From contig JBEKNP010000001.1 of the NCBI GenBank assembly GCA_049522695.1, forward strand, positions 4,261-68,260: DNA of 64,000 nucleotides, given 5' to 3'. The notes under the pieces are model-generated. The model searched no databases, was not told the origin of the DNA, and saw nothing but the letters and a program-made list of their open reading frames with translations. The stretch is from Candidatus Bathyarchaeia archaeon (GTDB lineage Archaea > Thermoproteota > Bathyarchaeia > Bathyarchaeales > Bathycorpusculaceae). Positions 34,095-51,302 of this stretch are shown piece by piece (position 1 is the first letter of the stretch; every line of letters starts with the position of its first letter). A program made the position numbers and the translations under genes.

Positions 34095-35173
34095 CGGTTT
34101 GGAAATCCTTTTCTCAAGATCGCATCACCTTCACCTACGGGTTTTAATCCAGCTTTTCGCATGTCTGCATCAACCATAATTTTGACCAGGTCTTTGAAAC
34201 AAATCTTAGGTTTCCAACCAAAAATTTTCCTGATTTTACTTGAATCAGCTAACAAATCATCAGTTTCAGTCGGCCTAAAATATTTTTGGTCAACTCGTAC
34301 ATAGTCTTCCCAGCTCAGACCAACGTAAGAAAATGCTTGTTCAACGAATTCTCGTACAGAATGCTGTTCTCCAGTTCCAACTACGAAATCGTCTGCTTTT
34401 TCCTGTTGAAGAATTTGCCACATTATTTCAACATATTCTGGAGCAAACCCCCAGTCGCGCTTTGGCTCAAGATTACCAAGATAAAGGAATTGTTGTTTTT
34501 TGGCGATAATGTTGGCAATAGCCATGGTGATTTTTCTGGTAACAAATATTTCACCTCTACGCGGAGATTCATGGTTAAAAAGAATACCATTGCACGCAAA
34601 CAGTCCATAGCCAAGGCGATAGTTTTTTGTCATCCAATAAGCGTAAACTTTGGCCACAGCATAAGGACTTGTTGGACTAAAAATGGTCTTTTCATTTTGA
34701 GGTGAAGGAGCGCTTCCGAACATTTCGCTGCTCGAAGCTTGATAAAATTTAACATGATTACCGCTTCGTCTAACCGACTCCAATATTCTGGTTGTTCCAA
34801 GAGCAGTAACGTTCCCTGTATATTCGGGCATACTAAAACTCACATTAACATGACTCTGAGCACCCAAATGATAGATTTCATCAGGTTTTACGTTATACAA
34901 GATATTAGAAATCTGCTCTGAATCAGACAAATCACCATAATGAAGAAAAAGACGCGCATTAGGTTCATGAGGGTCAACATATAAGTGTTCTAATCTGCTT
35001 GTGTTAAAGGTGCTTGCCCTTCGAATTATACCGTGAACTTCATAGCTTTTTGAAAGCAAAAACTCAGTTAAATAAGATCCATCTTGACCGGTAATCCCAG
35101 TAAGAAACGCTCTTTTCAAATCAAAGCCTTCGTCAATCATTATGTGAATTATTAAAAGTATTAAAATTTGCAC
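34076..35173 (-). CDS. gmd: GDP-mannose 4,6-dehydratase (start probably downstream of 35173)
   Basis: [43 protein letters not shown]. Confidence 0.95.
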
Positions 35174-35421
35174 AATTTATAGGCTTCCTTTATAGAGTGC
35201 TTTTAAGATTTTAAAAACTTAAGAATGTCTTGGACGTACCTACTTTGCTCAGTGCCTAAACACTGCAAAATATAAACTAACGCATTTATCCTGTTTAAAT
35301 CGATTTTATTTTTTTATTCGTTGCCACTGAAATAACCGCAATACTTTTGTTTCATAGGTTATAATAGATTGGTAATAAGTACAGAAATGGAATAGTTTCC
35401 TCGGATGGAGATTCACTCGCA

Positions 35422-36198
35422 ATGAAAAAAAGTGCTGTAAAAGTAGTTTTATTATGTGGTGGAAAAGGAACGCGTCTAAGAGAAGAAACAGCATTTAAAC
35501 CAAAATGTCTAGTGGAAATTGGAGGAAAACCAATTCTATGGCATATAATGAAAATCTACTCTCATTTTGGTTTCAATAATTTTGTCATTTGTTTGGGATA
35601 TAAAGGAGATATGATAAGAGACTATTTTCAAAATTATTGTCTTTATAATAACGATACGACAATTGAAGTAGCGAAAAAAGAAATATACTTTGAAAATCGT
35701 ACATCAGAAGATTGGAATGTTACCCTTGCGGAAACAGGTGAAGAAACAAATACCGGTGGTAGAATAAAAAAGATAGAAAAATACATTGATACAGCCTTCT
35801 TCTTGGCTACGTACGGAGACGGAGTTGCTGACATAAACATATCCAATCTAATTAAATATCATCTAGAAAACCATAAAATTGCAACTTTAACGGGTTTACA
35901 TCCGACATCAAAATATGGCATCTTACAAATTGATAATGAGGGAACAGTCACATATTTCAAGGAAAAACCGACTCTAAAAGAGTGGGTTTCAGGCGGATTC
36001 TTTGTTTTCAACAAAAGAATATTCAATTACCTCACCGAAAGCTGTATTTTAGAAAGAGAACCATTTGAACATTTAGTAAAAGATAAAGAACTAAACGTTT
36101 ACAAACATGAAGGATTCTGGGGATCAATGGACACTTATAAGGATCTAGAATACCTAAACGATGTATGGCAAACGCAGAAAAAATGGAAAATGTGGTAA
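35422..36198 (+). CDS. rfbF: Glucose-1-phosphate cytidylyltransferase
   Basis: GGKGTRLREET..KPK..VEIGGKPILWHIM, TNTGGRIK, HEGFWGSMDT. Confidence 0.92.
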   Translation: MKKSAVKVVLLCGGKGTRLREETAFKPKCLVEIGGKPILWHIMKIYSHFGFNNFVICLGYKGDMIRDYFQNYCLYNNDTTIEVAKKEIYFENRTSEDWNVTLAETGEETNTGGRIKKIEKYIDTAFFLATYGDGVADINISNLIKYHLENHKIATLTGLHPTSKYGILQIDNEGTVTYFKEKPTLKEWVSGGFFVFNKRIFNYLTESCILEREPFEHLVKDKELNVYKHEGFWGSMDTYKDLEYLNDVWQTQKKWKMW

Positions 36199-37214
36199 GT
36201 GTTGAAGAAATGAGCACAAAAAGCGATTTCTGGACTGAACGTAACGTATTAGTAACAGGGGCTTCTGGCTTCCTCGGTAGTTATCTTGCTGAGAAACTAG
36301 TTAAATCAGACGCGAACGTTATGGCGATAATCAGAGACAACGTTCCAAAATCAAAGTTATATGAGCAAAATATTTACAATAACATAACTGCAATAAGGGG
36401 AGATGTTAGAGACTACTTCCTTCTTCAAAGAGTGTTAAACGAATATGAAATTGAAGTTGTTTTTCATCTTGCAGCTCAAACAATAGTTCAAGTAGCCAAT
36501 AGGTCCCCACTCTCAACATTCGAAACAAACATGAACGGAACTTGGAACCTGTTGGAAGCTGCTAGAAATTCAGAGACTGTTAAAAGAATAATAGTAGCAT
36601 CCACCGATAAAGCCTATGGAGAAAAAAAGCAACTACCCTATTTTGAAACAGATGTGCTCAAGGCTACTCATCCATATGATCTTTCGAAGGCTGCAGCAGA
36701 TATGCTGTGTCAAGGGTATGCTGCAACTTACAAACTTCCAATTGGTATAACACGCTGTGGCAATCTTTACGGTGGAGGGGACCTGAACTTTAACAGAGTT
36801 GTACCACAAACAATAAGACACATTTATTTTAACGAGAATCCAATTATCCGAAGCGATGGAACCTTTCTTAGGGATTACTTCTATGTCGAAGATGCGGTTG
36901 ATGCGTACATTGTGTTTGCTGAGAACCTTTTGGAGAAAAAGCTTGAAGGAGAAGCTTTCAACTTTGGGACTGAGAAACCAGTTAGCGTAATAGATTTGGT
37001 TAATAAAATAATCAAAATTTCGGGCAAAGAAAATTTAAAGCCAATAATCAAAAACTGTGCAAAAGGAGAAATAAAAGATCAATATTTGTCATGCAAAAAA
37101 GCCCACGCTGTTCTACATTGGAAACCTAAACACACACTCGACGAGGGACTTGAAAAAACTCATAGATGGTATGAGAAATGGTTCCTAAAATATGGAAATC
37201 TAATTATTGAGTGA
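36165..37214 (+). CDS. rfbG: CDP-glucose 4,6-dehydratase-like SDR
   Basis: FWTERNVLVTGASGFLG, AAQTIV, STDKAYG, PYDLSK, RCGNLYGGGD; follows rfbF. Confidence 0.8.
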   Translation: MANAEKMENVVSVEEMSTKSDFWTERNVLVTGASGFLGSYLAEKLVKSDANVMAIIRDNVPKSKLYEQNIYNNITAIRGDVRDYFLLQRVLNEYEIEVVFHLAAQTIVQVANRSPLSTFETNMNGTWNLLEAARNSETVKRIIVASTDKAYGEKKQLPYFETDVLKATHPYDLSKAAADMLCQGYAATYKLPIGITRCGNLYGGGDLNFNRVVPQTIRHIYFNENPIIRSDGTFLRDYFYVEDAVDAYIVFAENLLEKKLEGEAFNFGTEKPVSVIDLVNKIIKISGKENLKPIIKNCAKGEIKDQYLSCKKAHAVLHWKPKHTLDEGLEKTHRWYEKWFLKYGNLIIE

Positions 37215-38184
37215 TAGAATGGAGCAAGATTACAGTTACTTACAAGATAAAAAGATACTGATAACTGGTGGATTAGGATTCGTAGGAGTAAATCTGGTAA
37301 AAAAACTCTTAGCAATGGACATAGAACCAACAATAATGGATTTTACATCAGATTTAAGAAGCATAGATAAACACTACATACCATTTGATCTTGATTCTTT
37401 GCCCTTTTACAACATTGACATAAGGCAAAGCGAAAAAGTTGTCGCCATAGTTCAAAACATATCGCCAGATTTCGTAATACACTTAGCAGGAATGACAAAT
37501 TTAGAAAAGACTTTTGAAAAAGCAGAACTCGCTATTGACATAAATCTAAAAGGTTCATTAGCCATCTTAAAAGGGTCCAAAAAAACAAATCTTAACAATT
37601 TTGTGTTCTTAAGTACAAGTGACATATATGGTGGAATTAATCCACCTTTTAGAGAAGACCAACTGGCCCAACCTGCTTCACCCTATTCTGCAAGCAAAGC
37701 AGCAACCGAGATGTTTTTAATCATGTTTTATAATGTTTACAAGATTCCAGTCACTATTTTAAGAAGCTTTAATCTTTATGGTAAATACCAACCACCAGAA
37801 AGAGTCATTCCCTTCATCATCAAGAAATTGTTAAATAACGAAGAAGTACCATTAACCAAAGGCGAACAAAAAAGAGAATTCAATTATGTTGACGATTTGT
37901 TGGATGCTATATTGAGATCACTATTTTTTAAGAACAGTCAAGGTAAAATACTAAATATAGGATCCGGGCTATCCATAAGCATAAAAGAAATTGCCATGTG
38001 TATTGCAAAAAAAATAGGAAAAGTCGACAAACTAAAAATAGGAGCATTACAATACAGAGAAAACGAAATATGGGATATGTATTGCGATAATTCATTGGCA
38101 CGTAACATCTTAAATTGGGAACCAAAGGTATCACTTGACGAAGGTTTAGAAAAGACAATAGAATGGTATAGGAGCATAAAATGA
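37207..38184 (+). CDS. NAD-dependent epimerase/reductase (CDP-deoxysugar reductase-like)
   Basis: GGLGFVG, STSDIYG, SPYSASK, RSFNLYG, REFNYV. Confidence 0.75.
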   Translation: MSDRMEQDYSYLQDKKILITGGLGFVGVNLVKKLLAMDIEPTIMDFTSDLRSIDKHYIPFDLDSLPFYNIDIRQSEKVVAIVQNISPDFVIHLAGMTNLEKTFEKAELAIDINLKGSLAILKGSKKTNLNNFVFLSTSDIYGGINPPFREDQLAQPASPYSASKAATEMFLIMFYNVYKIPVTILRSFNLYGKYQPPERVIPFIIKKLLNNEEVPLTKGEQKREFNYVDDLLDAILRSLFFKNSQGKILNIGSGLSISIKEIAMCIAKKIGKVDKLKIGALQYRENEIWDMYCDNSLARNILNWEPKVSLDEGLEKTIEWYRSIK

Positions 38185-38999
38185 GCGATAAACCCGATTT
38201 AAAACCGAATCTTCTGGTTTCAGTGATTATTCCAACTTTCAACTCAGAAAAACAATTACCCATATGTTTAGAGTCCATAAAAAACCAAACTTATCAAAAT
38301 ATCGAGCTAATTATCGCAGACGGATTCTCAACTGATAAAACTGTTGAAATTGCGGTCCAATATAAAGCAAAAGTATTACAAAAAAGCTGTCCATTTACTG
38401 AAAGAAGAAATTATGGAGCAACTATAGCGCAAGGAGACATTTATTACCATATGGATTCGGACATGATATTGCCTAAAGAATTAATAGAAACAGCGGTAAA
38501 ACAAATCGTTGGTGGATACGACGGAGTAATTATTCCACAACGGTTCTTGGGCGAAGGCTTTTTCGGCAAGTGCAAAGAACTAGAAGTTTTGAGCAGTACA
38601 AATGACGACAAACTAAAAATCTGTAGATTCATGAAAAAAACAGTTTTTGACGCTATAGGAGGATACGACGAGTCTCTCGAAGCAGGTGAGGATTGGGACA
38701 TCACACAAAGGATCGAAGAAAACTATCGACTAGTAAGGATAAATGTGTACGTTATTCACGGCTGGGGAAAATATAACCTGAGCAAATGGGTAAGTAAAAT
38801 GTATTATTATGGGAAAACCGTAAAAGAATATCAGGTTAAGCATAAGAATTATTCAAAGTATCAATGGAGCCCGCTCAGATTTTTTTTGATAGACTATTCA
38901 ATGCTCATAGATGATCCATTACATGCTTGCGGCCTAATTTTCATTAAATCTTGCGAGTTTTTCTCAGGATTTGTTGGACTACTAAACAATTCAGGATGA
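38181..38999 (+). CDS. Glycosyltransferase family 2
   Basis: SVIIPTFNSE, IIADGFSTD, RNYG, DSD, EDWD. Confidence 0.9.
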   Translation: MSDKPDLKPNLLVSVIIPTFNSEKQLPICLESIKNQTYQNIELIIADGFSTDKTVEIAVQYKAKVLQKSCPFTERRNYGATIAQGDIYYHMDSDMILPKELIETAVKQIVGGYDGVIIPQRFLGEGFFGKCKELEVLSSTNDDKLKICRFMKKTVFDAIGGYDESLEAGEDWDITQRIEENYRLVRINVYVIHGWGKYNLSKWVSKMYYYGKTVKEYQVKHKNYSKYQWSPLRFFLIDYSMLIDDPLHACGLIFIKSCEFFSGFVGLLNNSG

Positions 39000-39102
39000 T
39001 AATTATAAATCTGAATAAAAAAAGCATTAATTTCCTTTAAATTTTTGATGCAAATCAAGGAAGTAGCAACTAACATAAAAGCGCTTACTAAATTATTTTA
39101 GT

Positions 39103-40152
39103 CTATTTTTGGTTGACACAGTTCTCATAATTTGAATAGAGTCTTGATAATAAGGTAATTATTTCTTTCTCGGAGATTAAATTGGATAAATCTGAAGTAT
39201 AGACTACACTACCTTTGGCAGGCTTTGCAGTTTCTTTCAATCTTCCTGGATGAGGATTTATAATGTAATATTTTTCGGTTTCAACGACATTTGCTGCTTC
39301 AGTGGCGGTCATTAGTTCTTCATGCATTTTTTCACCGGGGTTAGCGCCTGTTTTTATGATTTTAATCGTTTGGCTGTCTTTATTATAAAGTTCTGAAAAA
39401 AAGACTCTACAAGCTTTAATTAAAGTGTTAACTTTAACCGCATTCATTTTAAGTACAAAAATTTCTCCAGAATTTGCTAATTCGGCAGCGTGTAAAACTA
39501 ACTTAGCTGCGTCAGAAGGTAACATTATGAATCTAGTCATTTCAGGATTTGTTACGGTTAATGGACATCCGCTTTTCACTTGTCTATCGAAAATAAGAAC
39601 AGCAGAACCTCTGCTGCCAAGCACGTTACCAAACCGAACAACAGAAAAAATCGGTCTGCTCGTCGATTTGCTTGAGCTTACTACTAGCCGTTCTCCTAGT
39701 AGTTTGGTCGTGCCTAAAACACTTATTGGATTAACAGACTTATCTGTACTAATGAAAACAAACTTTTTAATTCCATATTTAATGGCGCATTCAGCCGTTA
39801 TCTGTGTGCCGAGTACGTTTGTTGAAATAGCTTCATATGGATTACCTTCGCAGAAATCTACATGCTTCCTCGCAGCTGCGTGAAAAACATAATCACAATC
39901 TTTGATTACTGATTCGATACTGCGAGTGTCCGTAACATCTCCTAGCTTATAAAGTACTTCCGGATGCATACGTAGTAGGCTTCGAGCTTCAAAAAGTCCA
40001 TTCTCGTCATTATCAAAAAGAAGAATTTTTTTAGGTTTATAATTAAGAAGAGTTTTAGCGAGTTCCAAACCAATAGAACCTGTTCCGCCGGTTACTAGAA
40101 TCGTTGAATCTGTATAAACAGAGTTCTCAGATTTAGTTAATAACATGCACAC
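39103..40152 (-). CDS. UDP-GlcNAc 4,6-dehydratase family (PseB/CapD/FnlA-like)
   Basis: GTGSIG, AAARKHV, STDKSVNP, VRFGNVLGSRGS, PGEKMHEEL. Confidence 0.88.
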   Translation of the reverse strand: MCMLLTKSENSVYTDSTILVTGGTGSIGLELAKTLLNYKPKKILLFDNDENGLFEARSLLRMHPEVLYKLGDVTDTRSIESVIKDCDYVFHAAARKHVDFCEGNPYEAISTNVLGTQITAECAIKYGIKKFVFISTDKSVNPISVLGTTKLLGERLVVSSSKSTSRPIFSVVRFGNVLGSRGSAVLIFDRQVKSGCPLTVTNPEMTRFIMLPSDAAKLVLHAAELANSGEIFVLKMNAVKVNTLIKACRVFFSELYNKDSQTIKIIKTGANPGEKMHEELMTATEAANVVETEKYYIINPHPGRLKETAKPAKGSVVYTSDLSNLISEKEIITLLSRLYSNYENCVNQK

Positions 40153-40338
40153 TACCCTTCTTTCTTTAACTCATGTAAAGCGCTCAATATTTTAACTTTG
40201 TGTGTGCCACGAAAATTACAATTCTAATTTCTTCACTTGAGCTTATTGATGTTACATGCTTATCTTAAAAACCTGTATTAAATATAGTGCTATTCAAAAC
40301 CGTCATACTTTTATTTCGCAGATTAGCTTTTTACGATC

Positions 40339-41067
40339 ATGGACGCTAAAAAGTTGTTATCATTCTCGAATGCCCGAATCGTGTTAAATGAGCCATCAAC
40401 GATACCAGCTTTTCTGCGAGGAGGCAAAACCGAGGCTTACCGGGAAGCGTTACGAAAACTATTAGAGAACCTATCTCAGAGTGACTTAAAAGAGATAGGT
40501 GACTTATTGGAAAAATCTAATTCAATTTCTTCAGCAGCTTTCCCAAGAAAAATGGCTTTCTATAAAAGTGGCAGCGAATTTACCAATATTTTGATGCTGT
40601 ACTACCTTATCCGCCTTGAGAAACCACAACTAATCATAGAAACTGGTGTATGGACAGGAAAGACAAGCTGGACTATACTGCAAGCTTTAGCAGATAATGG
40701 ATCAGGTCATCTTATATCAGTGGACCTGGGAGTCAAATATATTTGTACTTCGCAGTTACCTATCAAAGAAATAGGCGGGTTTGTACCACAACGTCTACGT
40801 AGTTATTGGACATTAGAGATTGGCGATGCAGTGAAACTTGTTCCGGCCCTACTCAAGGAACACGGACCAATAGACATGTTTTACCACGATAGCGATCATA
40901 GTTATGAACATATGAAGTTTGAATTCACAACTGCCTACCAACATGTCAAGAACAACGGAATAATAAGCAGTGATGACATCAGCTTAAGCAATGCATGGAA
41001 GGAGTTTAGTCGCTCTCTAAGAGACCATTACGAAATTGACTATCTATTTGGATATGGACATAAATAA
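40339..41067 (+). CDS. Class I SAM-dependent methyltransferase (Methyltransf_24-like)
   Basis: IETGVWTGKTS, IDMFYHDSDHSY, DD. Confidence 0.8.
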   Translation: MDAKKLLSFSNARIVLNEPSTIPAFLRGGKTEAYREALRKLLENLSQSDLKEIGDLLEKSNSISSAAFPRKMAFYKSGSEFTNILMLYYLIRLEKPQLIIETGVWTGKTSWTILQALADNGSGHLISVDLGVKYICTSQLPIKEIGGFVPQRLRSYWTLEIGDAVKLVPALLKEHGPIDMFYHDSDHSYEHMKFEFTTAYQHVKNNGIISSDDISLSNAWKEFSRSLRDHYEIDYLFGYGHK

Positions 41068-41571
41068 ACGAAATTAGCAGGCAGATCAAAGAGCCACGAA
41101 TAGTGACCACCTCTGCCGGCTTTACGTACGCTCTGAACTTTATTTTGCCGGAGATTTTTAACCAGGGTCCGGTTTCTTATTAATCTGTTTTTTAAAATTT
41201 GACAATTATACTGATACACATGAGTCCCTGTAGTTATATAAAAAATATTGTTTAGGATTAGCAAATTTAATCCCTTTTTCTATCCTTTTTACAACAAAAC
41301 GTGCTAAGAAAAATAAATTACAAAGGTAACTTGGTAAATAAACGAAAACACAGGTACTTCTGCAAAAAGTCAATACCGCATCTTGGCAAGATGGATATAC
41401 CCGATTAAATTGCATCAGAAAATAAGCTTTGAAACAAAGGACTAAGAAAGCTTTGTCCTAAAGCCAAGGTTATCCAAAGTTTTTCATAACCCTTTAGAGA
41501 AGGCTGAATAGTTTGATTTTGCCCTTAAAAGAGCCAAACATGTGTTTGCCATCATCAACGTTATGTCAAAC

Positions 41572-42309
41572 TTACATTATCAATCCGCCATCTACAGAAA
41601 GCACGGCACCATTGACAAAACTGGCCTCATCCGAAGCAAGATACAAGTAAGCGTATGCAATATCTTTTGACGCTCCAAGCCTACCGAGAGGTGTTTTCTC
41701 TTTCATTGTTTGGAGAATCTTTTCAGGTACATTCAAAGTCATAGGTGTAATTATAAAACCAGGTGCTACCGCATTAACTCTTATTCCTTTCCTTCCAAGT
41801 TCCTTTGCCAAAGCCTTAGTCATTCCAATGAGTCCAGCTTTAGCAGCAGCGTAATTACATTGACCTATGTTGCCATATAATCCTATTATAGAAGATGCAT
41901 TAATAATTACACCTTGTCCCTGATTGATCATAACTTCGGTTACAGACTGTATGCAATTGAAAACTCCTGTAAGGTTGATTTCAATGACGCGATCCCATTG
42001 TTCTTTTGTCATTTTTAACATCAGGGCATCTTGGGTAATGCCTGCATTGTTTACCAACACGTCAATTCGACCGTATTTTTCTAAAGTAGTGTCAACCAGC
42101 TGTTTTAGTTGTTCTCTATTCGAGACATCTATCTTAACAAAAAATCCGTCTCCCATTTTCTTAATTTTCGCTACTGTTTCTTCGCCGTCTTTTTCATTTA
42201 TGTCTGCGACGACAACCTTAGCACCTTCTTTAGAAAACAGGAGTGCAGTTTCTTTGCCAATACCGCTTGCAGCTCCAGTGATAATTACAACTTTATTCTC
42301 AAGCCTCAT
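41572..42309 (-). CDS. fabG: 3-oxoacyl-ACP/acetoacetyl-CoA reductase (FabG/PhaB-like SDR)
   Basis: TGAASGIG, NNAGITQDA, GNIGQCNYAAAKAG, VAPGFIITPM, VDGG. Confidence 0.85.
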   Translation of the reverse strand: MRLENKVVIITGAASGIGKETALLFSKEGAKVVVADINEKDGEETVAKIKKMGDGFFVKIDVSNREQLKQLVDTTLEKYGRIDVLVNNAGITQDALMLKMTKEQWDRVIEINLTGVFNCIQSVTEVMINQGQGVIINASSIIGLYGNIGQCNYAAAKAGLIGMTKALAKELGRKGIRVNAVAPGFIITPMTLNVPEKILQTMKEKTPLGRLGASKDIAYAYLYLASDEASFVNGAVLSVDGGLIM

Positions 42310-42614
42310 TTTTATTCACACTTTCAATTTGCACTCTGGTCTATCCGATTTCAGGCTTAAAGGTGGATATTAATATATTTATGACGCACAAAACTATATA
42401 CATAAATTAGAGTTCCCTAAGCCCTAACTATGGATCTTTCAAAACTCAGTCATAATCTTCAGTTCACAATGTATGCCGTTGAAAGTTTTCAAGTTCGCAG
42501 TTTGATACTCAAATATACGAGATAGAAAAAGATGAAAGATTTAATTCAGGATAAAGAGACGGTAAAAAAGCAATTTATATTCTTAATATATTCTATAGGA
42601 GAAACAGGAGTAAA

Positions 42615-43586
42615 ATGAGAATTCATATTGCATCAAAAGATGAAATATCGACTGATCATCTAAGGAACATTCTTACAGCCAACAAGTTTCTTCCTTATGC
42701 AGAATACGGTATTTCAATTGATTGCCTAATTAATTATATTGTTAGAAATATCCAAGATTCTCTTGAAAAGGGTTCTTTTGTTCTTGTAGCAGAAGAAAAA
42801 AATAACATTCTCGGACTACTTGTCGGGGGAAAATCGGAATGGGATTCTAAACATTTCGGAATAGAGATAGCCATCATAAGGTATCTTTTCACTTCAGGAG
42901 ATTATTATGAAAGAAGACAATGCGCAAAAGAGTTATTGGCCAGCTTATCCGCAATCTCCAAATTTAAGCTTGTAATTTCACGGTCGCATACAGAAGACAT
43001 TCCTCTTGTTCATGCAATAGAGGATAGCTCCTTTCAGCTAATGGACACATTAGTTACTTACTATTTTGATTTTAAGAATAAAATTAGTGATTTTAAAGAA
43101 TCATGCAAAATTGAACCTTTAAAAGATGAGATGCCTGAATTAAAAAGGATTGCCAAAACAAGCTTCTCAGAGGCGAGTGTTGCAACAGATCACTTCCATG
43201 CAGACCATCGTTTGAATGAAGCAAAAAGTGACTCTTTATATGAACAGTGGGTAGAAGAGACCAGCAAAGATAAAGACAACGTTGTCTTAGTTGCAAAAAT
43301 CGATAACCGTCCAGTCGGATTCACCACGGGCAAAATAAATAACCAACTAAATAACTACTCAAACAAAAAAATAGGCTCACTAATTCTATCAGCGGTTTCC
43401 CTTGAATATAGACAAGCTCATGTTTATACAAGCATGATACAAACTGGATTAAGATGGTTTTCAGATAAGGTCGATATTGTTGATCTTGGAACCCAGATCG
43501 GTAATTATTCAGTACAAATCGCTTGGCAAAAATTAGGTTTTAGGATTGTAAGTTCCCGATACACCTGGCACAAATGGGTTGATTAA
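42615..43586 (+). CDS. Tandem GNAT acyltransferase (WecD-like aminosugar N-acyltransferase)
   Basis: SEWDSKHFG, DHFHADHRL, LYEQW, GTQIGNYSVQIAWQKLGFR. Confidence 0.75.
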   Translation: MRIHIASKDEISTDHLRNILTANKFLPYAEYGISIDCLINYIVRNIQDSLEKGSFVLVAEEKNNILGLLVGGKSEWDSKHFGIEIAIIRYLFTSGDYYERRQCAKELLASLSAISKFKLVISRSHTEDIPLVHAIEDSSFQLMDTLVTYYFDFKNKISDFKESCKIEPLKDEMPELKRIAKTSFSEASVATDHFHADHRLNEAKSDSLYEQWVEETSKDKDNVVLVAKIDNRPVGFTTGKINNQLNNYSNKKIGSLILSAVSLEYRQAHVYTSMIQTGLRWFSDKVDIVDLGTQIGNYSVQIAWQKLGFRIVSSRYTWHKWVD

Positions 43587-43660
43587 TCAAATTAATCTCG
43601 GTGCTCAATGTTAATGTTTTAGTGTTCGTAGCGAATGAGTGCTAATGTCTATTCAGTCGT

Positions 43661-46600
43661 TTAAATCCTATGGGAAGAAAGCTGTATTGTGCTTTTTTGT
43701 TTCAACTTTTTAGACCGCGCTCTGACTTTCAAAATTGAATAACAAATCAGCGCACAAACTATTACACCCGTTATTATTGATACACCAATTCCCAAGACAA
43801 AGTTGGTCTGTGGCTCATAGTAAAGCAACAAAGTAAAACTGTATGTCCCATTGGCATCTTGAGTTATCATATGTTGATCGGCAAGGGCGGTCAAGTTTAC
43901 GTACCAGCTGTTGGCATATCCGTTCAGAAGGAAGTGGTCATTGCCAAGAACTGAGGTACTTAGTAGTGGGGTGAGGTCATGTGAATCGGGGAAAGGAGTG
44001 CTTGCCTGCTCCAATTCAGTGCTTCCTGCGTAATTTCTGACGGGTGGGGCATCTCCTAATGTTTGTGTAGGTACTACATATAATTGCCAACCTTCTTGAT
44101 AACTTTCAAGGAAGTTCAAGAAGAACGGTCCTGATGCGTTTTCTGCATTTACCAACAACTTTCCAGGCTGGATTTGACGGAAAACCAACGTTGGTGCGAT
44201 GGAATTATTCTCAGGCATGTCTGTAGAAACCAAAGCAAGATCAAACTCTATCGGAGTCACTTTGACATTTAGTGCATTAGCGATGTCCTGCCTAAAGTTG
44301 GCATCAAGAGAAGTGTCGGTTAAAAGTTGTTCAAGACTGCTATAAGTGTTGGTTTCAAAGCTGAGTTTTACTACCCAAGTCCCATTATTGAGTCGATACA
44401 CAGGAGTATTTTCGACAATAATATTTGCTGGCAACTCGTCTTCTGTAATTCCATTAGGGAAAGTAAGTTGTACTTGCTGAGGAATATCTGAACTTGTCAC
44501 CAGGTTACCAGCGTCAAGATTAACACTGCCGATCTCGTACCAGCCATTTCCCACCGAGTTAAACTCACTTACTGGTACCGTTTGATTACCAAAAACTAAT
44601 TGCTTGCCAGCGTAAGGATTGGATGACGCATTCGTTGTCCCAGAATTACCTAAATTCATGTATATGTCAAAAAGTCCGGAGTTTTGAATGTCATCGACGT
44701 AATAGGTTAACGCGCGATCTGATGTCGTAACATTAGTTAGCTCCTGAACAGTCGCATTATCCTGCGCTATGGCTGATTTATCAGGAATAACGCTAGATTG
44801 TTGCAGAGCCAGGTCATTTTGGGCTTCTGCAAGATCTTGATCCGCTAAAATTGGCACGTATATGTCTTTGCCGTTAATGTTGGGAATAATTGCTGAGGAT
44901 GACGTGGAGCCGTTACTAACGTAGTCATAAGAAGTGTTGTAGTTGTTCAAGGATGCAAGAACTTCCAGTCGGGAGGTAACATAAGTGGTGCCCAAGAACG
45001 TGTCGTAGTTGTTAGTAGCGTAGACGTTGGCTGGAGAATTGGCATAAATCAAAGGCATAAAGTTATTCACATCGTAGATAGTAACGTTTCCGAAAGTTTG
45101 AGCATCGCTAATAAGACCTAAGTTACTTAGGGTACTGTAGAGGTCGTTGTATCTCTGCCAGTCATTGTCGTTTAGTTGGTAGGAATAATCTCCAGCCATA
45201 TCCTTGCTAAGCATTATCTGACCAACGTTAGATTTTTCTAATAGATAGTCAAAGTACCTGACTCTATCGACGTTAATTGTCGCGTTAGGAGTAGTATTGT
45301 CAGCAAAAATCGGACTGCCAGTAACCGGTGTTACTGGAATATCGGATTCGAAATCGACTTCGTTTTGTATTGCGTTAATAATATTATTGTCATATATGTC
45401 GCTACCAGTATACGAGCGTTCAAGCACAGGTTTGTTAAGTTCAACGCCGTCGAAAGTAATCCCGAAGTATCCCCATGAGTATCGATTTGTATATGATATC
45501 GATGGAAGATTCAAAATCTTGTATGAGACTGGATCGGCTTTTACATAGGCCGCAAGTTGTTGATAGTATGATGGAATATTGAAGAACCCTGGGGTATACA
45601 GTAGTTGGCCCGAGTAAGCTGGGTATGCATCAACTATCAAGGCAGTTACCAGCACAATGACGATTACTTTTTTGATCACTGATTTCTTTTTCAGAGAGTG
45701 AAAAGTTCTTGAAAACGTAAAGGTCCCAAAAGACTTCTTACCTATGGAAATCTTCCGAAGAGAGGTTCTCCTCAGAGAGGGTAGAATTCTTGAAAATGTA
45801 TAGGCTCCACTGATGCTTAAGGACGTGACTAACGCTGGCGCTATAATACCATAAGGGGTTCTGAGTATAACAAATTCTGATATATGCGTCATCAACCAAA
45901 TAAATATTCCACCGAATGGATCTCTGACACCTTTCATCAAGAAAAGGAATAAAATAGATATAATTCCTAAGCATAAGAGTCTACGCCTTAACAGATTTGA
46001 CTCTTTGAACAGCAAGCTTGCAAATGCAGCAACAGGAAGCAGAAAACTGCTCAGTACAAACACAGGGTTGTAGGTGAACAATGGGTAATATCGGTAACCA
46101 TATTGTCCAATAAAACCCGGCATTTCTATTATTTGATTCCAATTTCCTGTTCCGATCGTTCTAAATCCGTATAGCAACTGCGAGAAATCTCTGTTTTGCA
46201 GATTTAGTGAAAATACAGAAATCGTGTATATCTTGTCTGTGGCTGAAACTTGAAAATAAGGACTGAAAACCGTGTGCACGACAGCCCATATTAGAGGAAG
46301 AGATATTAGAACAAAAAGAAAACCTGTTAGAATAACCGTTACGACATCTTGCCGTTTATTATGACTCTCAACTAAAACATAGTAGAGAATATATAATCCC
46401 CCAAGTGCCAATGGGAAGATAGCAAAAGGCAATCCTATGAATCCACCCCAATTAAGATAAAACAGCACAAGAAGCACGAGCCAAAACCGTTTCTTGCCAG
46501 TCTGCAACAAAAGAAGAACTGCCGAGGTAATCAGTGCACTTGTGATCCAAGGCCAGACTTCAAGGAAAAGGGGATAAAAAACTTCGAGGTACATACCAAA

Positions 46601-47062
46601 ACTCGTGGCCGCAAGCAATCCTGCAAAGAAAGCAATTAAGTTTCTTCGGGGATCCCGATAAAAAATCGAATATGCCAACACAGCCACAGATAAACTTGGC
46701 AATATAAAGAGCAGCATATTAATGGTGAAATTCATTTGAAGAGCACTAAACCCAATGGCTGATAGAAAAGAGAAGAACAGCAAGGGAACCGCATACCCGG
46801 CTTCAGTGCCTAGTTCGACCCCGAATCCTCGAGTTTGTTGCCACATTGAGAATCTCTCCAAGAATTCTTGCCATGGATGCAACTCAATGTTACTGATATC
46901 GGTAAATGTGTAAAATCGCCCATATCCAAAATTAATCAGAAAAAAAACTACCATGATAATAGCAAGCAAGATAAACCAGAAATACTCAGAGAGAAATCGT
47001 GTAATGCGAACAGTAAGCACATGCAATACTGCATTCAAATCTTTCAACGTGTTACACCACAC
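43661..47062 (-). CDS. Large polytopic membrane protein, GT-C/AftD/YfhO-like, with extracellular domain and C-terminal TM anchor
   Basis: About 480-aa multi-TM N-terminus, IPSYY...YKILNLP motif, many N-x-S/T sequons, final TM followed by a basic tail. Confidence 0.65.
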   Translation of the reverse strand: MWCNTLKDLNAVLHVLTVRITRFLSEYFWFILLAIIMVVFFLINFGYGRFYTFTDISNIELHPWQEFLERFSMWQQTRGFGVELGTEAGYAVPLLFFSFLSAIGFSALQMNFTINMLLFILPSLSVAVLAYSIFYRDPRRNLIAFFAGLLAATSFGMYLEVFYPLFLEVWPWITSALITSAVLLLLQTGKKRFWLVLLVLFYLNWGGFIGLPFAIFPLALGGLYILYYVLVESHNKRQDVVTVILTGFLFVLISLPLIWAVVHTVFSPYFQVSATDKIYTISVFSLNLQNRDFSQLLYGFRTIGTGNWNQIIEMPGFIGQYGYRYYPLFTYNPVFVLSSFLLPVAAFASLLFKESNLLRRRLLCLGIISILFLFLMKGVRDPFGGIFIWLMTHISEFVILRTPYGIIAPALVTSLSISGAYTFSRILPSLRRTSLRKISIGKKSFGTFTFSRTFHSLKKKSVIKKVIVIVLVTALIVDAYPAYSGQLLYTPGFFNIPSYYQQLAAYVKADPVSYKILNLPSISYTNRYSWGYFGITFDGVELNKPVLERSYTGSDIYDNNIINAIQNEVDFESDIPVTPVTGSPIFADNTTPNATINVDRVRYFDYLLEKSNVGQIMLSKDMAGDYSYQLNDNDWQRYNDLYSTLSNLGLISDAQTFGNVTIYDVNNFMPLIYANSPANVYATNNYDTFLGTTYVTSRLEVLASLNNYNTSYDYVSNGSTSSSAIIPNINGKDIYVPILADQDLAEAQNDLALQQSSVIPDKSAIAQDNATVQELTNVTTSDRALTYYVDDIQNSGLFDIYMNLGNSGTTNASSNPYAGKQLVFGNQTVPVSEFNSVGNGWYEIGSVNLDAGNLVTSSDIPQQVQLTFPNGITEDELPANIIVENTPVYRLNNGTWVVKLSFETNTYSSLEQLLTDTSLDANFRQDIANALNVKVTPIEFDLALVSTDMPENNSIAPTLVFRQIQPGKLLVNAENASGPFFLNFLESYQEGWQLYVVPTQTLGDAPPVRNYAGSTELEQASTPFPDSHDLTPLLSTSVLGNDHFLLNGYANSWYVNLTALADQHMITQDANGTYSFTLLLYYEPQTNFVLGIGVSIITGVIVCALICYSILKVRARSKKLKQKSTIQLSSHRI

Positions 47063-47064
47063 CG

Positions 47065-48225
47065 TTACTTGTTGCTATCAGCTGCTAGTACTTCAGCTAT
47101 AGCCCCATCAAAGATGTGATTCCAATCAAATTGTTTAGAGTACTCAAAGGCATTACTCCGATACTCTTCTAACAGAGGTTCATTCGTAAGTAAGGTAACA
47201 ATCGCTTTTGCCAGTTCATCAGCATCATATCTGATAACTATACCGCATCGTCGTCGCTGGATTTCATAAGCATTATACGGTACATTCGTCAAAATAACAG
47301 GTAGACCAGACGCCAAATAGTTTTTTATTTTTCCGGGATCAGCGTAGCGAGTCCAAGTGTCAGTCTTCATATCATATGGAGCAACTGCACAAGCGCAATG
47401 TGATGATAATTCTTCCATTTCTTCATCGCTCTTGTATCCTACAAAAAGGACATAATTTTCGATTCCAAGTTCTTTTACCAGACATCTTAGTGCGGGCTCG
47501 TAATTGCCTTTTCCTATGACCAGGAATTCAAAATCAATTATCGCCTTTCTAATTTCGGGAATAGCTTTCAGAACTAGCTGAACACCTTGCTTTTCAAGCA
47601 AATGGCCAACGAATAATACGCGGTGCCTATGAATTTTTTCTATAGGTAATTTTACTCTTCGACTTGTCCAAATTCCTATCGGCACAATCCGTTGCGGACG
47701 TTTTGACTTGATTCCGTACATTTTTTCTCTTAATTTTTCAATTCTAGGAGATATGTTCCAAGCAAAATCACAATTCTTCAGAGCAAAACGATTTTCCTGG
47801 AAATATATCATATTCTTCCAACTGGCGCTGAAACGTAAGTTAGGAACAAAATCACCAGCCCAAAACACGGTTTTATCTACTCTGCGCAACTTTTTCAAAA
47901 TTATCCCAGGCAAAGCATCGAATCCACTAAGACCAATTGAGATATCCCATCTTTCTCCTGTTCGCAGAATACTAAACATAGCAAACATGAAATCCTTAAG
48001 CATAACAATTAGTTCGGGCGTATCTCTGTAGTTCCTGCTATTCCATCTTTTCACTATGGCACCATTCTGATGCTCTTCGTAGAAAGACCGTCTATTTGGA
48101 CTATCTGCAAAATCATGCCATATAAACAATACTCGATCGTAGCGCTTATCCAGATATTCTACAAGGTCGTCTTGGGTGGAAGCAGTGAATTTATGTGTAA
48201 CTACGAGAAAACTCTTCGCAACCAT
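47065..48225 (-). CDS. Glycosyltransferase family 4 (GT-B)
   Basis: FVGHLLEKQGV, PGKIKNYLASGLPVI, GIVI, FDW. Confidence 0.85.
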   Translation of the reverse strand: MVAKSFLVVTHKFTASTQDDLVEYLDKRYDRVLFIWHDFADSPNRRSFYEEHQNGAIVKRWNSRNYRDTPELIVMLKDFMFAMFSILRTGERWDISIGLSGFDALPGIILKKLRRVDKTVFWAGDFVPNLRFSASWKNMIYFQENRFALKNCDFAWNISPRIEKLREKMYGIKSKRPQRIVPIGIWTSRRVKLPIEKIHRHRVLFVGHLLEKQGVQLVLKAIPEIRKAIIDFEFLVIGKGNYEPALRCLVKELGIENYVLFVGYKSDEEMEELSSHCACAVAPYDMKTDTWTRYADPGKIKNYLASGLPVILTNVPYNAYEIQRRRCGIVIRYDADELAKAIVTLLTNEPLLEEYRSNAFEYSKQFDWNHIFDGAIAEVLAADSNK

Positions 48226-48228
48226 TTG

Positions 48229-49074
48229 CTATCGGACTCGTTTAGAGCACGGGACTGGACCATCAATCCAAAGTTGTAGTTTCAATGTAAAGGTTAGTAG
48301 AAAGAGATTCGTTACAGTTTGAATTAATTTTACTTTGCTCTTCCGTCCTGGCGGCTCTGTCACACGTACTGGAACCTCCCTTATCGACATATTTGCCCTA
48401 TCTGCGAGAAGCATGAGCTCAGTGTTAAAGAACCACCCATCACTCGTTAGGTAAGGCAATAGAGCGATAAACGCCTCCTTTCTCACCGCCTTTATTCCGC
48501 AAATATCACTATATTCGTATGAAAACAACAGCTTAATCCAGTAATGAAACGCTCTAGAAAGAAGACGCCTTAATGGCTTTGCGTCGGTACATGATCCAAC
48601 CGTAAAACGGGACCCAAAACAAACATCATATCCCTCTTGAGCCGCTTGAATTACCCGTTTCACATCATCAAAATCAAAAGGAAGGTCACCATCTATATGG
48701 CATTGAATGTCGGCACTACTGTTTTCCCAAGCTACCTTAAGCGCGATACCAACGCCCTTGCGATCTATTCTAAGGTATTTGACCTCCGGATATGATTCCG
48801 CTAACATCTGACCTATTTTCGGAGTCATATCTGTTGAAAAATTATCAGCAATAACAATCTCCCATTTGCATTCGAATGCTGATTTCATGAAAGAGAGCAG
48901 TCTTAGAACATTCTGCTCCAAAACTGATTCCTCGTTATAAACGGGAAGCACAATTGACAAGCTTTCATTATTCATAGTCATGTGAAACGATTTCATGGAT
49001 TCATAGGAACATCCTGTACTAGCGGACAATAATCCCAATTCAGGCGTTCCCAAAGAGCACTTTCTCATGATCAC
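48229..49074 (-). CDS. GT2, dolichol-phosphate sugar synthase-like
   Basis: SIVLPVYNEE, ADNFSTD, GVGIAL, DGD, GSRF, DICGIKA, FFNTEL. Confidence 0.85.
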   Translation of the reverse strand: MIMRKCSLGTPELGLLSASTGCSYESMKSFHMTMNNESLSIVLPVYNEESVLEQNVLRLLSFMKSAFECKWEIVIADNFSTDMTPKIGQMLAESYPEVKYLRIDRKGVGIALKVAWENSSADIQCHIDGDLPFDFDDVKRVIQAAQEGYDVCFGSRFTVGSCTDAKPLRRLLSRAFHYWIKLLFSYEYSDICGIKAVRKEAFIALLPYLTSDGWFFNTELMLLADRANMSIREVPVRVTEPPGRKSKVKLIQTVTNLFLLTFTLKLQLWIDGPVPCSKRVR

Positions 49075-50135
49075 TTACTCAAACTCCCCACAACGAGTGC
49101 CACAGGCATCGTTTATTACAATGGTGGGCGAGTTACAGCGAAAGAATTTGGATTTACACTGATGCATACGCCTTATAATTCTTCTATGAATATTCGCCCA
49201 GTCCCAGCTTGGTGTTAACGAGTTTAGATTTGTCAAAAGATCACGAACCGCCTCAATATTTTCATTACGTAAACTCCTCACTGGCTTTTCTGTTGTTTAT
49301 GCTTCTTGGACTATAAAGTTTGTGTATATAAGCACTTAAAAAAGTTAGTGGCAAAAAAACAAGAAATAAGGTTTCAAATATTTGTTGATCATCAGAATTT
49401 TTTTCTTTCTTTAATAAGATCCCCATTTTGGTATTTCGCCTCTTTCTTTATTTAGAAAATCCAGCAAAAAGGTATCTCAGGATCAATTTTACTATAAAGC
49501 AATGAGATACTAAGCAAAGTAACCTGACGGAAAGCTCGAGTCGAGTTCATGACGCAAAATTCAAAAAAAATCGATTAAACTAATTCAAATTCACTTCATC
49601 AAGTATTTTCCTATTTGTTGTAGTCGAACAACTACACAGTTTTTTGTAAATATTTAAAAAACTTTTTTTGACTTATAGGTCACCTTGATAAAATAAGTGA
49701 CTGACTAAGATGAGTTTTAATGCACTCTATAAGAACTGATGCTAAATGAACCTCAATTGCAAAAACGTGGCATTAGCGAAAGGAAGAAACAGAAATGACC
49801 ATAAAAATAATAAAAATAATTAAGAAATGGCGGTTCAAGAATAGAAACTTTGTATACCCACAATGCATGAATGTTTTTCCTAAAAAAACTGCGACGACAA
49901 GCGGAGATAGAGGAACCGCATATGGTATTCATGTTCATTGTAAAAAGTGCGGGCAGATAGTTGCATATAGCAATTAAAGAGTTAAAGTTTTCAGTCTAAC
50001 TTGCCGCTTTATGAAAAAGCAGTTTGGCGGTTTTTCATTAATTTTAAGAGAAAAAATCAGGCATGGTTTCAGCGAGCTAATAACATTAAACCGATCAAGT
50101 TTAACGTTATTCAATTTGGCCTAGGAAAAAAATAC

Positions 50136-51302
50136 TTATGTTTTTTGGGCTCTTTCCTTTGCACGTTTTATTTCATTCACAACTTGATTAATTTGATCCT
50201 CGGTTATTGTGGGAAATATGGGTAAAGATAAAATTTCATTATATATTTGTTCTGCAACAGGGAAATCACCAATGCTGTGATGTACTAGATTTTTATAGAA
50301 TGTCAATAAATGCAACGGCGTATAATGGACACTTAACCCTATTTTCTTCTCGGAGAGTTCCAAGAATAACTTATTCCTACTAATACCAAACTTTTTTTCG
50401 AGAACCCTAATGACATATAAATGGTATGAATGTGTTCTATCTTTCGCTTCAAATGGCGTGATAATTCCGTCAATTTCCTTTAGACGATCTGAATATTGGT
50501 TTGCAGCATTGACTCGTAGTCTGTTAATATCGCTCAATCTTTTTAATTGTGATGTGCCTAGTACGGCTTGAACCTCATTTAACCTGTAATTATAGCCTAA
50601 ATCTATTACGTCATAATACCATGCAGCCCCACTCTCTCGATCGACAGCACTTCGTGTCATTCCATGTTCTCGCAGGATTTTAGCTCTTCTAAATAGATCT
50701 TCGTTATTTGTAACGAACATCCCCCCCTCAAGGGTAGTTAAAATCTTAGTTGGATAAAAACTGAAGCAACCTATGGTACCGATGGTTCCAGCTTTCCTTT
50801 TCAGATAGGTTGCACCAACTGTATGAGCACAATCCTCAACCACGGGCAGCTTATGATCTTTAGCAATCTCCATTATTTCTTTCATGTCGCATGGCTGTCC
50901 ACCATAATGAACTACTATAATGGCTTTAGTTTTTTCAGAAATTTTATCAATGATTGATTTTGGTGAAATATTATATGTTTTTTCATCGATGTCAGCGAAA
51001 ACAGGCTTTGCCCCACAGAAAATAGGTGCATTGGCCGTCGCGGCAAAAGTTAAGACCGGAACAATAACTTCGTCGCCAGGACCAATATCCAATACTCTCA
51101 TGGCTAAGTGTAATGCGGCTGTGCAACTATTAACGGAAATAGCGTACTTTGAACCGATAACATTTGCGAAGAGCCCTTCAAATTCAACCGCTTTTGGTCC
51201 CCCAGTTAACCAACGGGATTGTAAAGCATTATAGACAGCTTCTTTATCTGCATCGTTTATCCAGGGAGCAAAGAACGGAATACCATCTTTATTTATAGCC
51301 AC
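50136..51302 (-). CDS. DegT/DnrJ/PseC-type PLP sugar aminotransferase
   Basis: NSCTAALHLA, EDCAH, SFYPTKILTTLEGG (Schiff-base Lys), GYNYRL. Confidence 0.92.
   Translation of the reverse strand: MAINKDGIPFFAPWINDADKEAVYNALQSRWLTGGPKAVEFEGLFANVIGSKYAISVNSCTAALHLAMRVLDIGPGDEVIVPVLTFAATANAPIFCGAKPVFADIDEKTYNISPKSIIDKISEKTKAIIVVHYGGQPCDMKEIMEIAKDHKLPVVEDCAHTVGATYLKRKAGTIGTIGCFSFYPTKILTTLEGGMFVTNNEDLFRRAKILREHGMTRSAVDRESGAAWYYDVIDLGYNYRLNEVQAVLGTSQLKRLSDINRLRVNAANQYSDRLKEIDGIITPFEAKDRTHSYHLYVIRVLEKKFGISRNKLFLELSEKKIGLSVHYTPLHLLTFYKNLVHHSIGDFPVAEQIYNEILSLPIFPTITEDQINQVVNEIKRAKERAQKT

Follow-up and report, generated by a model that had tools for sequence, protein, structure and literature searches.

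A predicted coenzyme A-based route to an N-(3-hydroxybutyryl) amino sugar in a glycan island of a Bathyarchaeia archaeon

Why should a reductase resembling the PhaB enzymes of storage-polymer synthesis be encoded back to back with an N-acyltransferase in an archaeal island of sugar genes? The question is raised by a 64,000-nucleotide stretch of contig JBEKNP010000001.1 (hereafter the window) from a Bathyarchaeia archaeon of soil or peat, in which the acyltransferase belongs to the GNAT family and the reductase to the short-chain dehydrogenases/reductases (SDRs). With a probability of about 0.65, the locus that contains this pair encodes the coenzyme A (CoA)-based synthesis of a 4-amino-4,6-dideoxy-N-acetylhexosamine (HexNAc) that carries an N-(3-hydroxyacyl) group, most likely N-[(R)-3-hydroxybutyryl]. 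The predicted sugar is most likely a 2-acetamido-4-acylamido-2,4,6-trideoxyhexose of the bacillosamine or 6-deoxy-altrosamine type. Bathyarchaeia are among the most abundant uncultured archaeal groups of sediments and peat. To our knowledge, archaeal surface glycans have been described from only a few cultivated species, and we know of no such description for Bathyarchaeia.

The gene for the PhaB-type reductase, a classical SDR (41572-42309, minus strand; 245 amino acids; adh_short and adh_short_C2, E 1e-66 to 1e-74), and that for the tandem GNAT N-acyltransferase (42615-43586, plus strand; 323 amino acids; PF00583 at residues 204-309) diverge from an intergenic region of 305 bp between the two start codons (42310-42614), presumed to be a shared promoter region. 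A first-pass annotation of this DNA had described the divergence correctly, and all the genes that it named were recovered as intact open reading frames (ORFs) within 39103-51302 by ORF listing and profile scans. It had also noted the lack of genes for acyl carrier protein (ACP) or fatty-acid synthesis nearby, and profile scans of 31-58 kb of the window found none. Its central proposal, that the reductase supplies the acyl donor to the GNAT, gains support from comparative genomics: from orthology with PhaB, from the grouping of the GNAT-linked reductases in one clade and from the linkage of GNAT genes to SDR or MaoC genes.

The classical SDR motifs of the reductase are intact (TGAASGIG, residues 11-18; NNAG, 87-90; N112, S140, Y153 and K157). 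The protein scores above two curated equivalog cut-offs for FabG (NF004198, 318.1 > 296; TIGR01830, 303.5 > 297.75), and glucose 1-dehydrogenase models also give good scores. An aspartate after β-strand 2 of an SDR usually indicates NAD(H), and from Asp36, which follows β2, the enzyme is probably NADH-dependent. Its best solved relative is 4nbu, reportedly an NADH-FabG crystallised with acetoacetyl-CoA.

Homologues of the reductase were sought among 5.8 billion proteins and thousands were returned; the named ones at 78-82% identity are mainly from Methanoperedens, ANME-2 and Bathyarchaeia. They occur in three genomic contexts. In polyhydroxyalkanoate (PHA) operons, P0008 (81% identity) and P0097 (78%, Methanoperedens) are encoded directly after phaE and phaC, and P0097 directly before a thiolase gene, the place that PhaB takes in PHA operons. 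The same assignment has been made for the PhaB of Methanoperedens, which is treated as an acetoacetyl-CoA reductase (PMC13079737). In an acyl-CoA metabolism context, P0071 (79%, Bathyarchaeia) lies between genes for a MaoC dehydratase and a thiolase, beside electron transfer flavoprotein (ETF) genes. In glycan loci, P0004 (90%), P0005 (86%) and P0006 (84%) are divergent from a GNAT homologue and lie beside a 4,6-dehydratase gene. In a quick-mode IQ-TREE maximum likelihood tree with SH-aLRT support, the three groups formed separate clades (96-98) inside one clade with 100% support, and the GNAT-linked reductases, including the window copy, were monophyletic (SH-aLRT 96). The glycan-linked and PHA-operon clades show fixed differences at 6 of 245 positions, none of them catalytic. 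Because these differences are so few and spare the catalytic residues, the enzyme is very probably still an acetoacetyl-CoA/3-oxoacyl-CoA reductase, and it is predicted to supply (R)-3-hydroxybutyryl-CoA.

Members of the reductase clade are approximately 78-82% identical across the PHA operons of Methanoperedens and ANME-2 and, in Bathyarchaeia, both the MaoC/ETF/thiolase clusters and the glycan cassettes. So close a likeness points to a recent exchange of the gene between archaeal phyla. Among the members of the clade is one that is binned as Methylomirabilis.

The GNAT-reductase pair is present in four further contigs, representing three distinct loci (L001, L002 and the near-identical L116/L117). 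In each of these the divergent arrangement is kept beside a 4,6-dehydratase gene, with gaps of approximately 160 to 540 bp, while the other neighbours differ. Before the comparison, the first-pass annotation had named co-occurrence of this SDR clade with GNAT and DegT genes in glycan loci as a test, and had proposed to give up the idea if the SDR acted on a sugar nucleotide or was unlinked in relatives, and the GNAT used only acetyl-CoA. Co-occurrence was found, with the pair conserved and its SDRs in one clade; the SDR is linked in relatives and is not of the sugar-nucleotide type.

The closest relative locus, L001 (on an ERZ25039528 contig), has its DegT gene in three pieces, its GNAT gene in two and fragmented epimerase genes. 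These split genes look like the product of a frameshift-rich long-read assembly rather than real pseudogenes.

Two syntenic loci of Bathyarchaeota reveal exchange of the supplier gene. In L009 the frame of the window locus is kept, with the dehydratase (81% identity), methyltransferase (76%), GNAT (74-75%), large membrane protein, GT4, GT2 and DegT aminotransferase (79%), and the slot of the PhaB-like gene holds an unrelated FabG-like SDR that is 31% identical. L010 has the same frame (GNAT 67%) and no SDR, and a MaoC hydratase is encoded 215 bp downstream of its GNAT. Where the GNAT is 30-40% identical, there is very often a MaoC hydratase encoded in the same direction 41-215 bp upstream, a FabG-like SDR encoded within 26-630 bp, or both. 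For all neighbouring SDRs that were scanned the top models were FabG or acetoacetyl-CoA reductase, and for all neighbouring MaoC proteins scanned they were R-specific enoyl-CoA hydratase. Classically, (R)-3-hydroxybutyryl-CoA is made in two ways, by reduction of acetoacetyl-CoA with PhaB-type enzymes or by hydration of crotonyl-CoA with PhaJ/MaoC-type enzymes. A shared (R)-3-hydroxyacyl-CoA product is the simplest explanation for finding either supplier beside the GNAT.

The GNAT loci compared (19 from genomes and 75 from metagenomes) were searched with the window proteins and one MaoC protein, and a census was restricted to non-redundant loci with full flanks and GNAT identity of at least 29% (n = 25). 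An SDR and/or MaoC gene lay within 1 kb of the GNAT gene in 15 of these 25 loci, compared with 1 of 11 loci with more distant, mostly bacterial GNATs. Around the GNAT in the same loci, SDR and MaoC genes had a density of 0.295 per kb up to a distance of 1 kb and of 0.0036 per kb at distances above 2 kb, a difference of about 80-fold. In the GNAT tree, built in quick mode only, one 50-member clade showed the linkage in several of its deep subclades, and the bacterial outgroups lacked it. The linked loci in named genomes (L009, L010 and L020) are all from Bathyarchaeota. The origin of L009 and L010, which are syntenic with the window locus, supports an archaeal source for the window, as do kinship searches that put its genome into a class with many Bathyarchaeota genomes. 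By the SDR tree, the neighbouring SDRs have several independent origins.

Loci with neither supplier were also scanned. L011, L030 and L046 contain genes for WbqC-like, GT4, PMT_2 and methyltransferase proteins, and no other acyl-CoA supplier was seen in them. In L011 (11070-11780) and L030 (7224-7949) a WbqC-like protein (PF08889, E 1e-74) is encoded directly after the GNAT. L011, L030 and, by ORF position, L013 belong to a Bathyarchaeota GNAT subclade at 36-39% identity which has no SDR or MaoC gene within 1 kb, and this WbqC-linked subclade may belong to a different acyl or modification system. Other GNAT relatives, in L049 (8761-13089) and also in L047 and L060, lie in a denser tailoring block, which in addition to the GNAT encodes both MaoC and a FabG-like SDR, a WbmS-like polysaccharide deacetylase, a small hexapeptide transferase and a second hexapeptide acyltransferase. 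The presence of hydratase and reductase together in these three loci may reflect more elaborate acyl chemistry.

The family of the GNAT itself is small: 40 members were found among 5.8 billion proteins. The AlphaFold model of the window GNAT (pLDDT 93, pTM 0.89) is that of a genuine two-domain tandem GNAT, and its Foldseek neighbours are the tandem GNATs MAB_4324, VipF, MshD and a clostridial glucosamine N-acetyltransferase, together with the dTDP-fucosamine acetyltransferase WecD (2fs5; E 6e-14, TMt 0.83). Identity to any solved structure is 12-17%, and a phmmer search against all Protein Data Bank (PDB) chains gave nothing below E = 0.07. The protein falls far under the WecD equivalog cut-offs (NF008212, 45.3 against 219; TIGR02382, 23.9 against 195). 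The distance from the GNAT gene to a DegT gene is at most 2.5 kb in 16 of 31 loci, and at most 6.6 kb in 13 of 17. The WecD-like fold and profile matches and the proximity of DegT support an amino sugar as the acceptor. The GNAT is predicted to represent a small new tandem family, distantly WecD-like, that N-acylates the 4-amino group of a UDP-sugar with a 3-hydroxyacyl group.

Enzymes that could make such an acceptor are encoded on either side. The putative UDP-GlcNAc 4,6-dehydratase (39103-40152, minus strand; 349 amino acids; Polysacc_synt_2, PF02719, E 9e-92) is Pen/CapD/PseB-like, and its best solved relatives are UDP-GlcNAc 4,6-dehydratases: Pen/CapD 6bwc (237 bits, the top match), CapE, FnlA, PglF and PseB. 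It lies below the model cut-offs (PseB, 239 bits against 407.75; FnlA, 207 bits) and is 81-83% identical in the syntenic loci L001, L009, L010 and L116. The predicted pyridoxal phosphate-dependent sugar C4 aminotransferase (50136-51302, minus strand; 388 amino acids; DegT family, PF01041, E 3e-124) is PseC/ArnB-like; it scores 400.5 bits with the PseC model, under the cut-off of 423.5, and its nearest solved structure is ArnB 1mdo (253 bits). Its syntenic counterparts in L009 and L010 share 79-83% identity with it.

Other roles for the reductase can be set against the content of the genome, a 2.8 Mb metagenome-assembled genome (MAG) in 130 contigs that is 96.5% complete. A search for ACP (PF00550) found none in this genome and was positive in 11 of 14 control genomes, ruling out an ACP-dependent FabG. 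PHA synthase (PhaC) was likewise not found in the genome, which rules out a role in PHA synthesis. There is a single copy of the reductase gene, no second close copy being found in the genome, and this is the only one of 151 genomes in the family to have the clade, so the gene is neither a housekeeping gene nor a local duplicate. The GNAT is also patchy (7 of 401 genomes of the class), and the two behave as accessory, island-borne genes. Searches with PF03102 and by tblastn with the NeuB of L002 found no NeuB in the genome, ruling out a pseudaminic acid pathway there; the product therefore probably stays a 4-acylamino-2-acetamido-trideoxyhexose. Neither MaoC nor a thiolase of the L003 type was found in the genome by tblastn, and profile scans found no ketoacyl synthase in the island.

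Several observations weigh against a 3-hydroxybutyryl route. About 40% of the family loci, in WbqC-linked and some NeuB-linked groups, have neither SDR nor MaoC, so that a tie to hydroxyacyl donors does not hold throughout the GNAT family. The reductase is under the cut-offs of the acetoacetyl-CoA reductase models (TIGR01829, 249.8 < 302.1; NF009546, 215.9 against 418) and has an NADH-type aspartate, whereas classical PhaB uses NADPH. In the window the DegT gene is 6.5 kb away from the GNAT gene. Thiolase-like genes in the genome speak for the route, as a possible source of acetoacetyl-CoA, and one of them adjoins an ORF which, read by eye from the sequence, resembles a fused zinc-ribbon/HMG-CoA (hydroxymethylglutaryl-CoA) synthase; but in archaea thiolase probably passes its acetoacetyl-CoA straight to HMG-CoA synthase, making the supply of free substrate uncertain. 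Moreover, another contig of the genome (C89:1-2244) encodes ETF β and α subunits with 96.6% identity to their counterparts in a related MAG, in which a MaoC-SDR-GDH-thiolase block follows the ETF genes. C89 ends 480 bp past the ETF α gene in apparently non-coding DNA without MaoC, exactly where the relative has its MaoC-SDR pair. The block has either been lost or been missed in assembly, and there is a small chance that a second copy of the reductase went with it.

The same product could also be reached in the other order, the GNAT transferring acetoacetyl from acetoacetyl-CoA and the SDR then reducing the N-acetoacetyl group on the nucleotide sugar. This order has been proposed for VioR of Pseudomonas syringae, as dTDP-N-acetoacetylviosamine is given as a precursor of the 3-hydroxy form and deletion of vioR abolishes mVio (PMC3927599), and the gene content here fits both orders alike. 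It is nevertheless unlikely, since the reductase has only six non-catalytic differences from PHA-operon PhaB, which suggests that a CoA-thioester substrate was kept, and since in many relatives the SDR is replaced by MaoC, of an enoyl-thioester enzyme class that would have no role after transfer of acetoacetyl. An incidental linkage has about the same low probability. The GNAT would then be acetyl-CoA-dependent, as is its nearest characterised relative, WecD, and make a di-N-acetyl bacillosamine-like sugar, and the SDR would be a 3-hydroxyacyl-CoA dehydrogenase of general metabolism present in the island by chance; the family loci devoid of SDR and MaoC, and the sister SDR clade that in a related genome sits with MaoC, ETF and thiolase genes, fit this view. 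Chance does not readily account for a pair found in three further distinct loci with a monophyletic SDR, for a slot refilled by a non-orthologous SDR or by MaoC in syntenic loci, or for the approximately 80-fold enrichment beside the GNAT. Nor does an SDR clade absent from 150 of 151 family genomes behave as housekeeping, and the genome lacks β-oxidation-like partner genes.

Acyl groups other than 3-hydroxybutyryl are less probable again. Chain length is not readable from sequence, and the transferred group could be a longer 3-hydroxyacyl or, where MaoC and SDR coexist and could run two steps (L047, L049, L060, L078 and L084), a crotonyl/enoyl or 3-oxoacyl group. However, the genome has no fatty-acid synthesis or β-oxidation genes that would provide longer 3-oxoacyl-CoAs, the nearest orthologues of the reductase serve polyhydroxybutyrate-type operons, and SDR-only and MaoC-only loci converge on a 3-hydroxy thioester. 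Least probable of all, and very unlikely, is action of the SDR on the sugar itself. Its substrate would then be a nucleotide sugar or sugar acid, which it would dehydrogenate or reduce at a keto group, and it would have no part in the supply of the acyl donor. Classical SDRs do include sugar dehydrogenases, the homologue P0108 is named L-rhamnose 1-dehydrogenase in a public database, and the scores with glucose 1-dehydrogenase models point the same way. Against this, the reductase passes FabG equivalog cut-offs and is 78-81% identical to reductases of PHA operons and MaoC/thiolase clusters, and replacement by MaoC in relatives makes sense only for acyl-thioester chemistry.

A route by way of 3-hydroxybutyryl-CoA is thus the preferred reading, and it would run as follows. 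The Polysacc_synt_2 dehydratase, from its family, would convert UDP-GlcNAc to UDP-4-keto-6-deoxy-HexNAc, and the DegT enzyme, also placed by family, would aminate C4, turning the 4-keto into a 4-amino group. The reductase, by its orthology with PHA-operon reductases, would convert thiolase-derived acetoacetyl-CoA to (R)-3-hydroxybutyryl-CoA, and the tandem GNAT, from the family-wide gene linkage, would move the 3-hydroxybutyryl group onto the 4-amino group. The methyltransferase may then methylate the sugar product. Most speculatively, loading of the sugar onto dolichyl phosphate may be the task of the ArnC/AglJ-like GT2, with flipping to follow, and the GT4 and the 1133-amino-acid GT-C-like protein may act in the assembly or attachment of the surface glycan. 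We infer the acyl chain length, the order of reduction and transfer, the stereochemistry, the site of methylation and the acceptor glycoconjugate.

A related locus may extend this chemistry to nonulosonic acids. In L002 the GNAT-reductase pair is followed by genes for a PseB-like dehydratase, a PseC-like aminotransferase, a cytidylyltransferase and a NeuB/PseI-like synthase. The 4-N-acyl group would there become 7-N-acyl, giving a 7-N-hydroxybutyryl nonulosonic acid of pseudaminic type. This predicted product mirrors the bacterial Pse5Ac7(R3Hb) named in PMC3726653.

The closest known system is the viosamine island of P. syringae pv. tabaci (vioA, vioB, vioS, vioR, acp, vioM and vioT; PMC3927599); neither this island nor its FabG-like VioR was mentioned in the first-pass annotation. 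Its product is dTDP-N-(3-hydroxy-1-oxobutyl)-2-O-methylviosamine for flagellin, and deletion of vioR abolishes the sugar (Yamamoto et al. 2011, PMC3927599). Both systems cluster a C4 aminotransferase, an N-acyltransferase, a FabG-like reductase dedicated, here by prediction, to the 3-hydroxybutyryl group and a methyltransferase of approximately 241 amino acids (here within 39.1-51.3 kb), a likeness in the roles of the genes. Each also has a very large transferase (1,173 amino acids there, 1,133 here), and the product class, an N-3-hydroxybutyryl 4-amino-4,6-dideoxyhexose, would be the same. They differ in how the C4 unit is made, which in P. syringae is built on ACP with KAS III (vioS and acp), whereas here there is no ACP in the genome, no ketoacyl synthase in the island and a PhaB-type CoA reductase. 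The sugar is dTDP-viosamine there and would be a UDP-GlcNAc-derived 2-acetamido sugar here, where the acyltransferase is a tandem GNAT and the organism archaeal. FabG genes together with ACPs are also on record from islands for flagellin glycosylation in enterobacteria (PMC4875605).

N-(3-hydroxybutanoyl) sugars known from bacteria include Fuc3N(R3Hb), Qui3N(R3Hb), QuiNAc4N(3Hb) and Pse5Ac7(R3Hb), with the transferases FdhC, QdhC and QhbA (PMC4869667, PMC3726653, PMC3628348). The 3-hydroxybutanoyltransferases FdhC and QdhC occur in Escherichia coli O103, Salmonella O55, Acinetobacter and Hafnia (PMC4869667, PMC3726653), and QhbA/QhbB/Gdr make UDP-D-QuiNAc4N(3-hydroxybutyryl) in Acinetobacter K loci (PMC3628348). 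FdhC, QdhC and QhbA place (R)-3-hydroxybutanoyl on an amino-deoxy sugar nucleotide, the reaction predicted here from gene linkage. The order Gdr-QhbB-QhbA (4,6-dehydratase, 4-aminotransferase, acyltransferase) parallels the dehydration, amination and acylation steps proposed above. These bacterial loci are described without a dedicated supplier of 3-hydroxybutyryl-CoA (PMC4869667, PMC3726653, PMC3628348). In addition, the GNAT studied here is a 323-amino-acid tandem-domain protein of an approximately 40-member family, and the phmmer search, which covered PDB chains, showed no sequence relationship to these transferases.

Three further systems share parts of the locus. With PHA synthesis it has in common a reductase 78-81% identical to that of archaeal phaE-phaC-SDR-thiolase operons, and GNAT relatives carry a PhaJ-like MaoC; it differs in the absence of PHA synthase from the genome and in the NADH-type Asp36, and the predicted consumer of the thioester is a sugar N-acyltransferase rather than a polymerase. 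WecD/RffC resembles the GNAT in its fold, its extra N-terminal domain and its partnership with a DegT aminotransferase, and MshD, VipF and MAB_4324 share the architecture of two GNAT domains. The GNAT remains far below the WecD equivalog cut-off, and its predicted donor is not acetyl-CoA. The pseudaminic acid pathway offers a PseB-like dehydratase, a PseC-like aminotransferase and, at the position of PseH, the GNAT; in contrast to that pathway, the genome lacks NeuB/PseI, scores with the models for PseB and PseC stay below cut-off, and PseG and PseF were not found in the island.

The archaeal cassette would therefore be set apart from bacterial ones by ACP-free chemistry at the CoA level, a PHA-clade reductase or MaoC, a new tandem-GNAT family and a start from UDP-GlcNAc. 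As a wider proposal, held at about even odds, Bathyarchaeia and their relatives would use tandem-GNAT N-acyltransferases with an exchangeable gene for a CoA-level donor (PhaB-like, FabG-like, PhaJ/MaoC-like, or two of these). The supplier in the window would have been recruited into a mobile glycan cassette from the PHA reductase clade of Methanoperedens (approximately 80% identical, across two archaeal phyla). The products, made without ACP, would be the first N-(3-hydroxybutyryl) amino sugars of an archaeal surface; in some relatives they would be 7-N-hydroxybutyryl nonulosonic acids. The first-pass annotation knew of no such modification in archaea, and literature searches agreed in finding no paper that joins hydroxybutanoyl sugars with archaeal glycans, which is absence of evidence only. 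If the prediction is true, a decoration known in bacteria would be present for the first time, as N-(3-hydroxybutyryl) amino sugars, on an archaeal surface.

The locus predicts a specific sugar, 2-acetamido-4-(3-hydroxybutanoylamino)-2,4,6-trideoxyhexose, possibly methylated, and its four soluble enzymes make the prediction cheaply testable. Where ACP-based fatty-acid synthesis is absent, storage-polymer enzymes of PhaB and PhaJ types can apparently be co-opted for tailoring of glycans, the acyltransferase staying in place while the supplier gene is swapped. This gives a functional handle on a GNAT family now annotated as 'RimI-like' or hypothetical, and an archaeal 'FabG' annotation should not be equated with fatty-acid synthesis.

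The remaining genes of the locus are conserved with this core. The S-adenosylmethionine-dependent methyltransferase (40339-41067, plus strand; 242 amino acids; Methyltransf_24, PF13578, E 2.9e-17) had no sequence match in NCBIfam or PDB, and copies 76-77% identical occupy the same slot in L009, L010, L108 and L116/117. A sugar hydroxyl and the acyl 3-OH are candidate targets. A polytopic membrane protein of 1133 amino acids (43661-47062, minus strand) matches PF11847 (AftD-like GT-C) at 23.1 bits, sub-threshold against a cut-off of 26, and is 64-65% identical and syntenic in L009 and L010. It is a candidate extracytoplasmic transferase for a lipid-linked sugar. The GT4-type glycosyltransferase (Glycos_transf_1; 47065-48225, minus strand; PF13692, PF00534) is 80-81% identical in L009 and L010. 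The GT2 protein (48229-49074, minus strand; PF00535), which resembles polyprenyl-phosphate sugar synthases and has weak NCBIfam matches to AglJ, ArnC and DPhHxTase_Halo, is 73-82% identical in L001, L009 and L010. Together, this GT2 (ArnC/AglJ/Dol-P-hexose transferase-like), the DegT protein nearest to ArnB and the large GT-C-like protein recall the logic of the bacterial Arn (aminoarabinose) pathway, namely N-acylation, loading on polyprenyl phosphate and transfer outside.

The glycan island (33-55 kb) also encodes a GDP-mannose dehydratase, several epimerases, a nucleotidyltransferase, a further GT2 and a DUF3131 protein. Its G+C content is 35-37% (window 34000-44000), compared with 40-46% over most of the remaining window, a composition in keeping with an accessory island that is exchanged horizontally. 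Approximately 1 kb of AT-rich DNA (49075-50135), without a listed ORF of at least 80 amino acids, separates the GT2 and DegT genes. By eye, an ORF of about 60 codons can be read in this gap at approximately 49796-49978, with a CxxC...CxxC spacing typical of a zinc ribbon.

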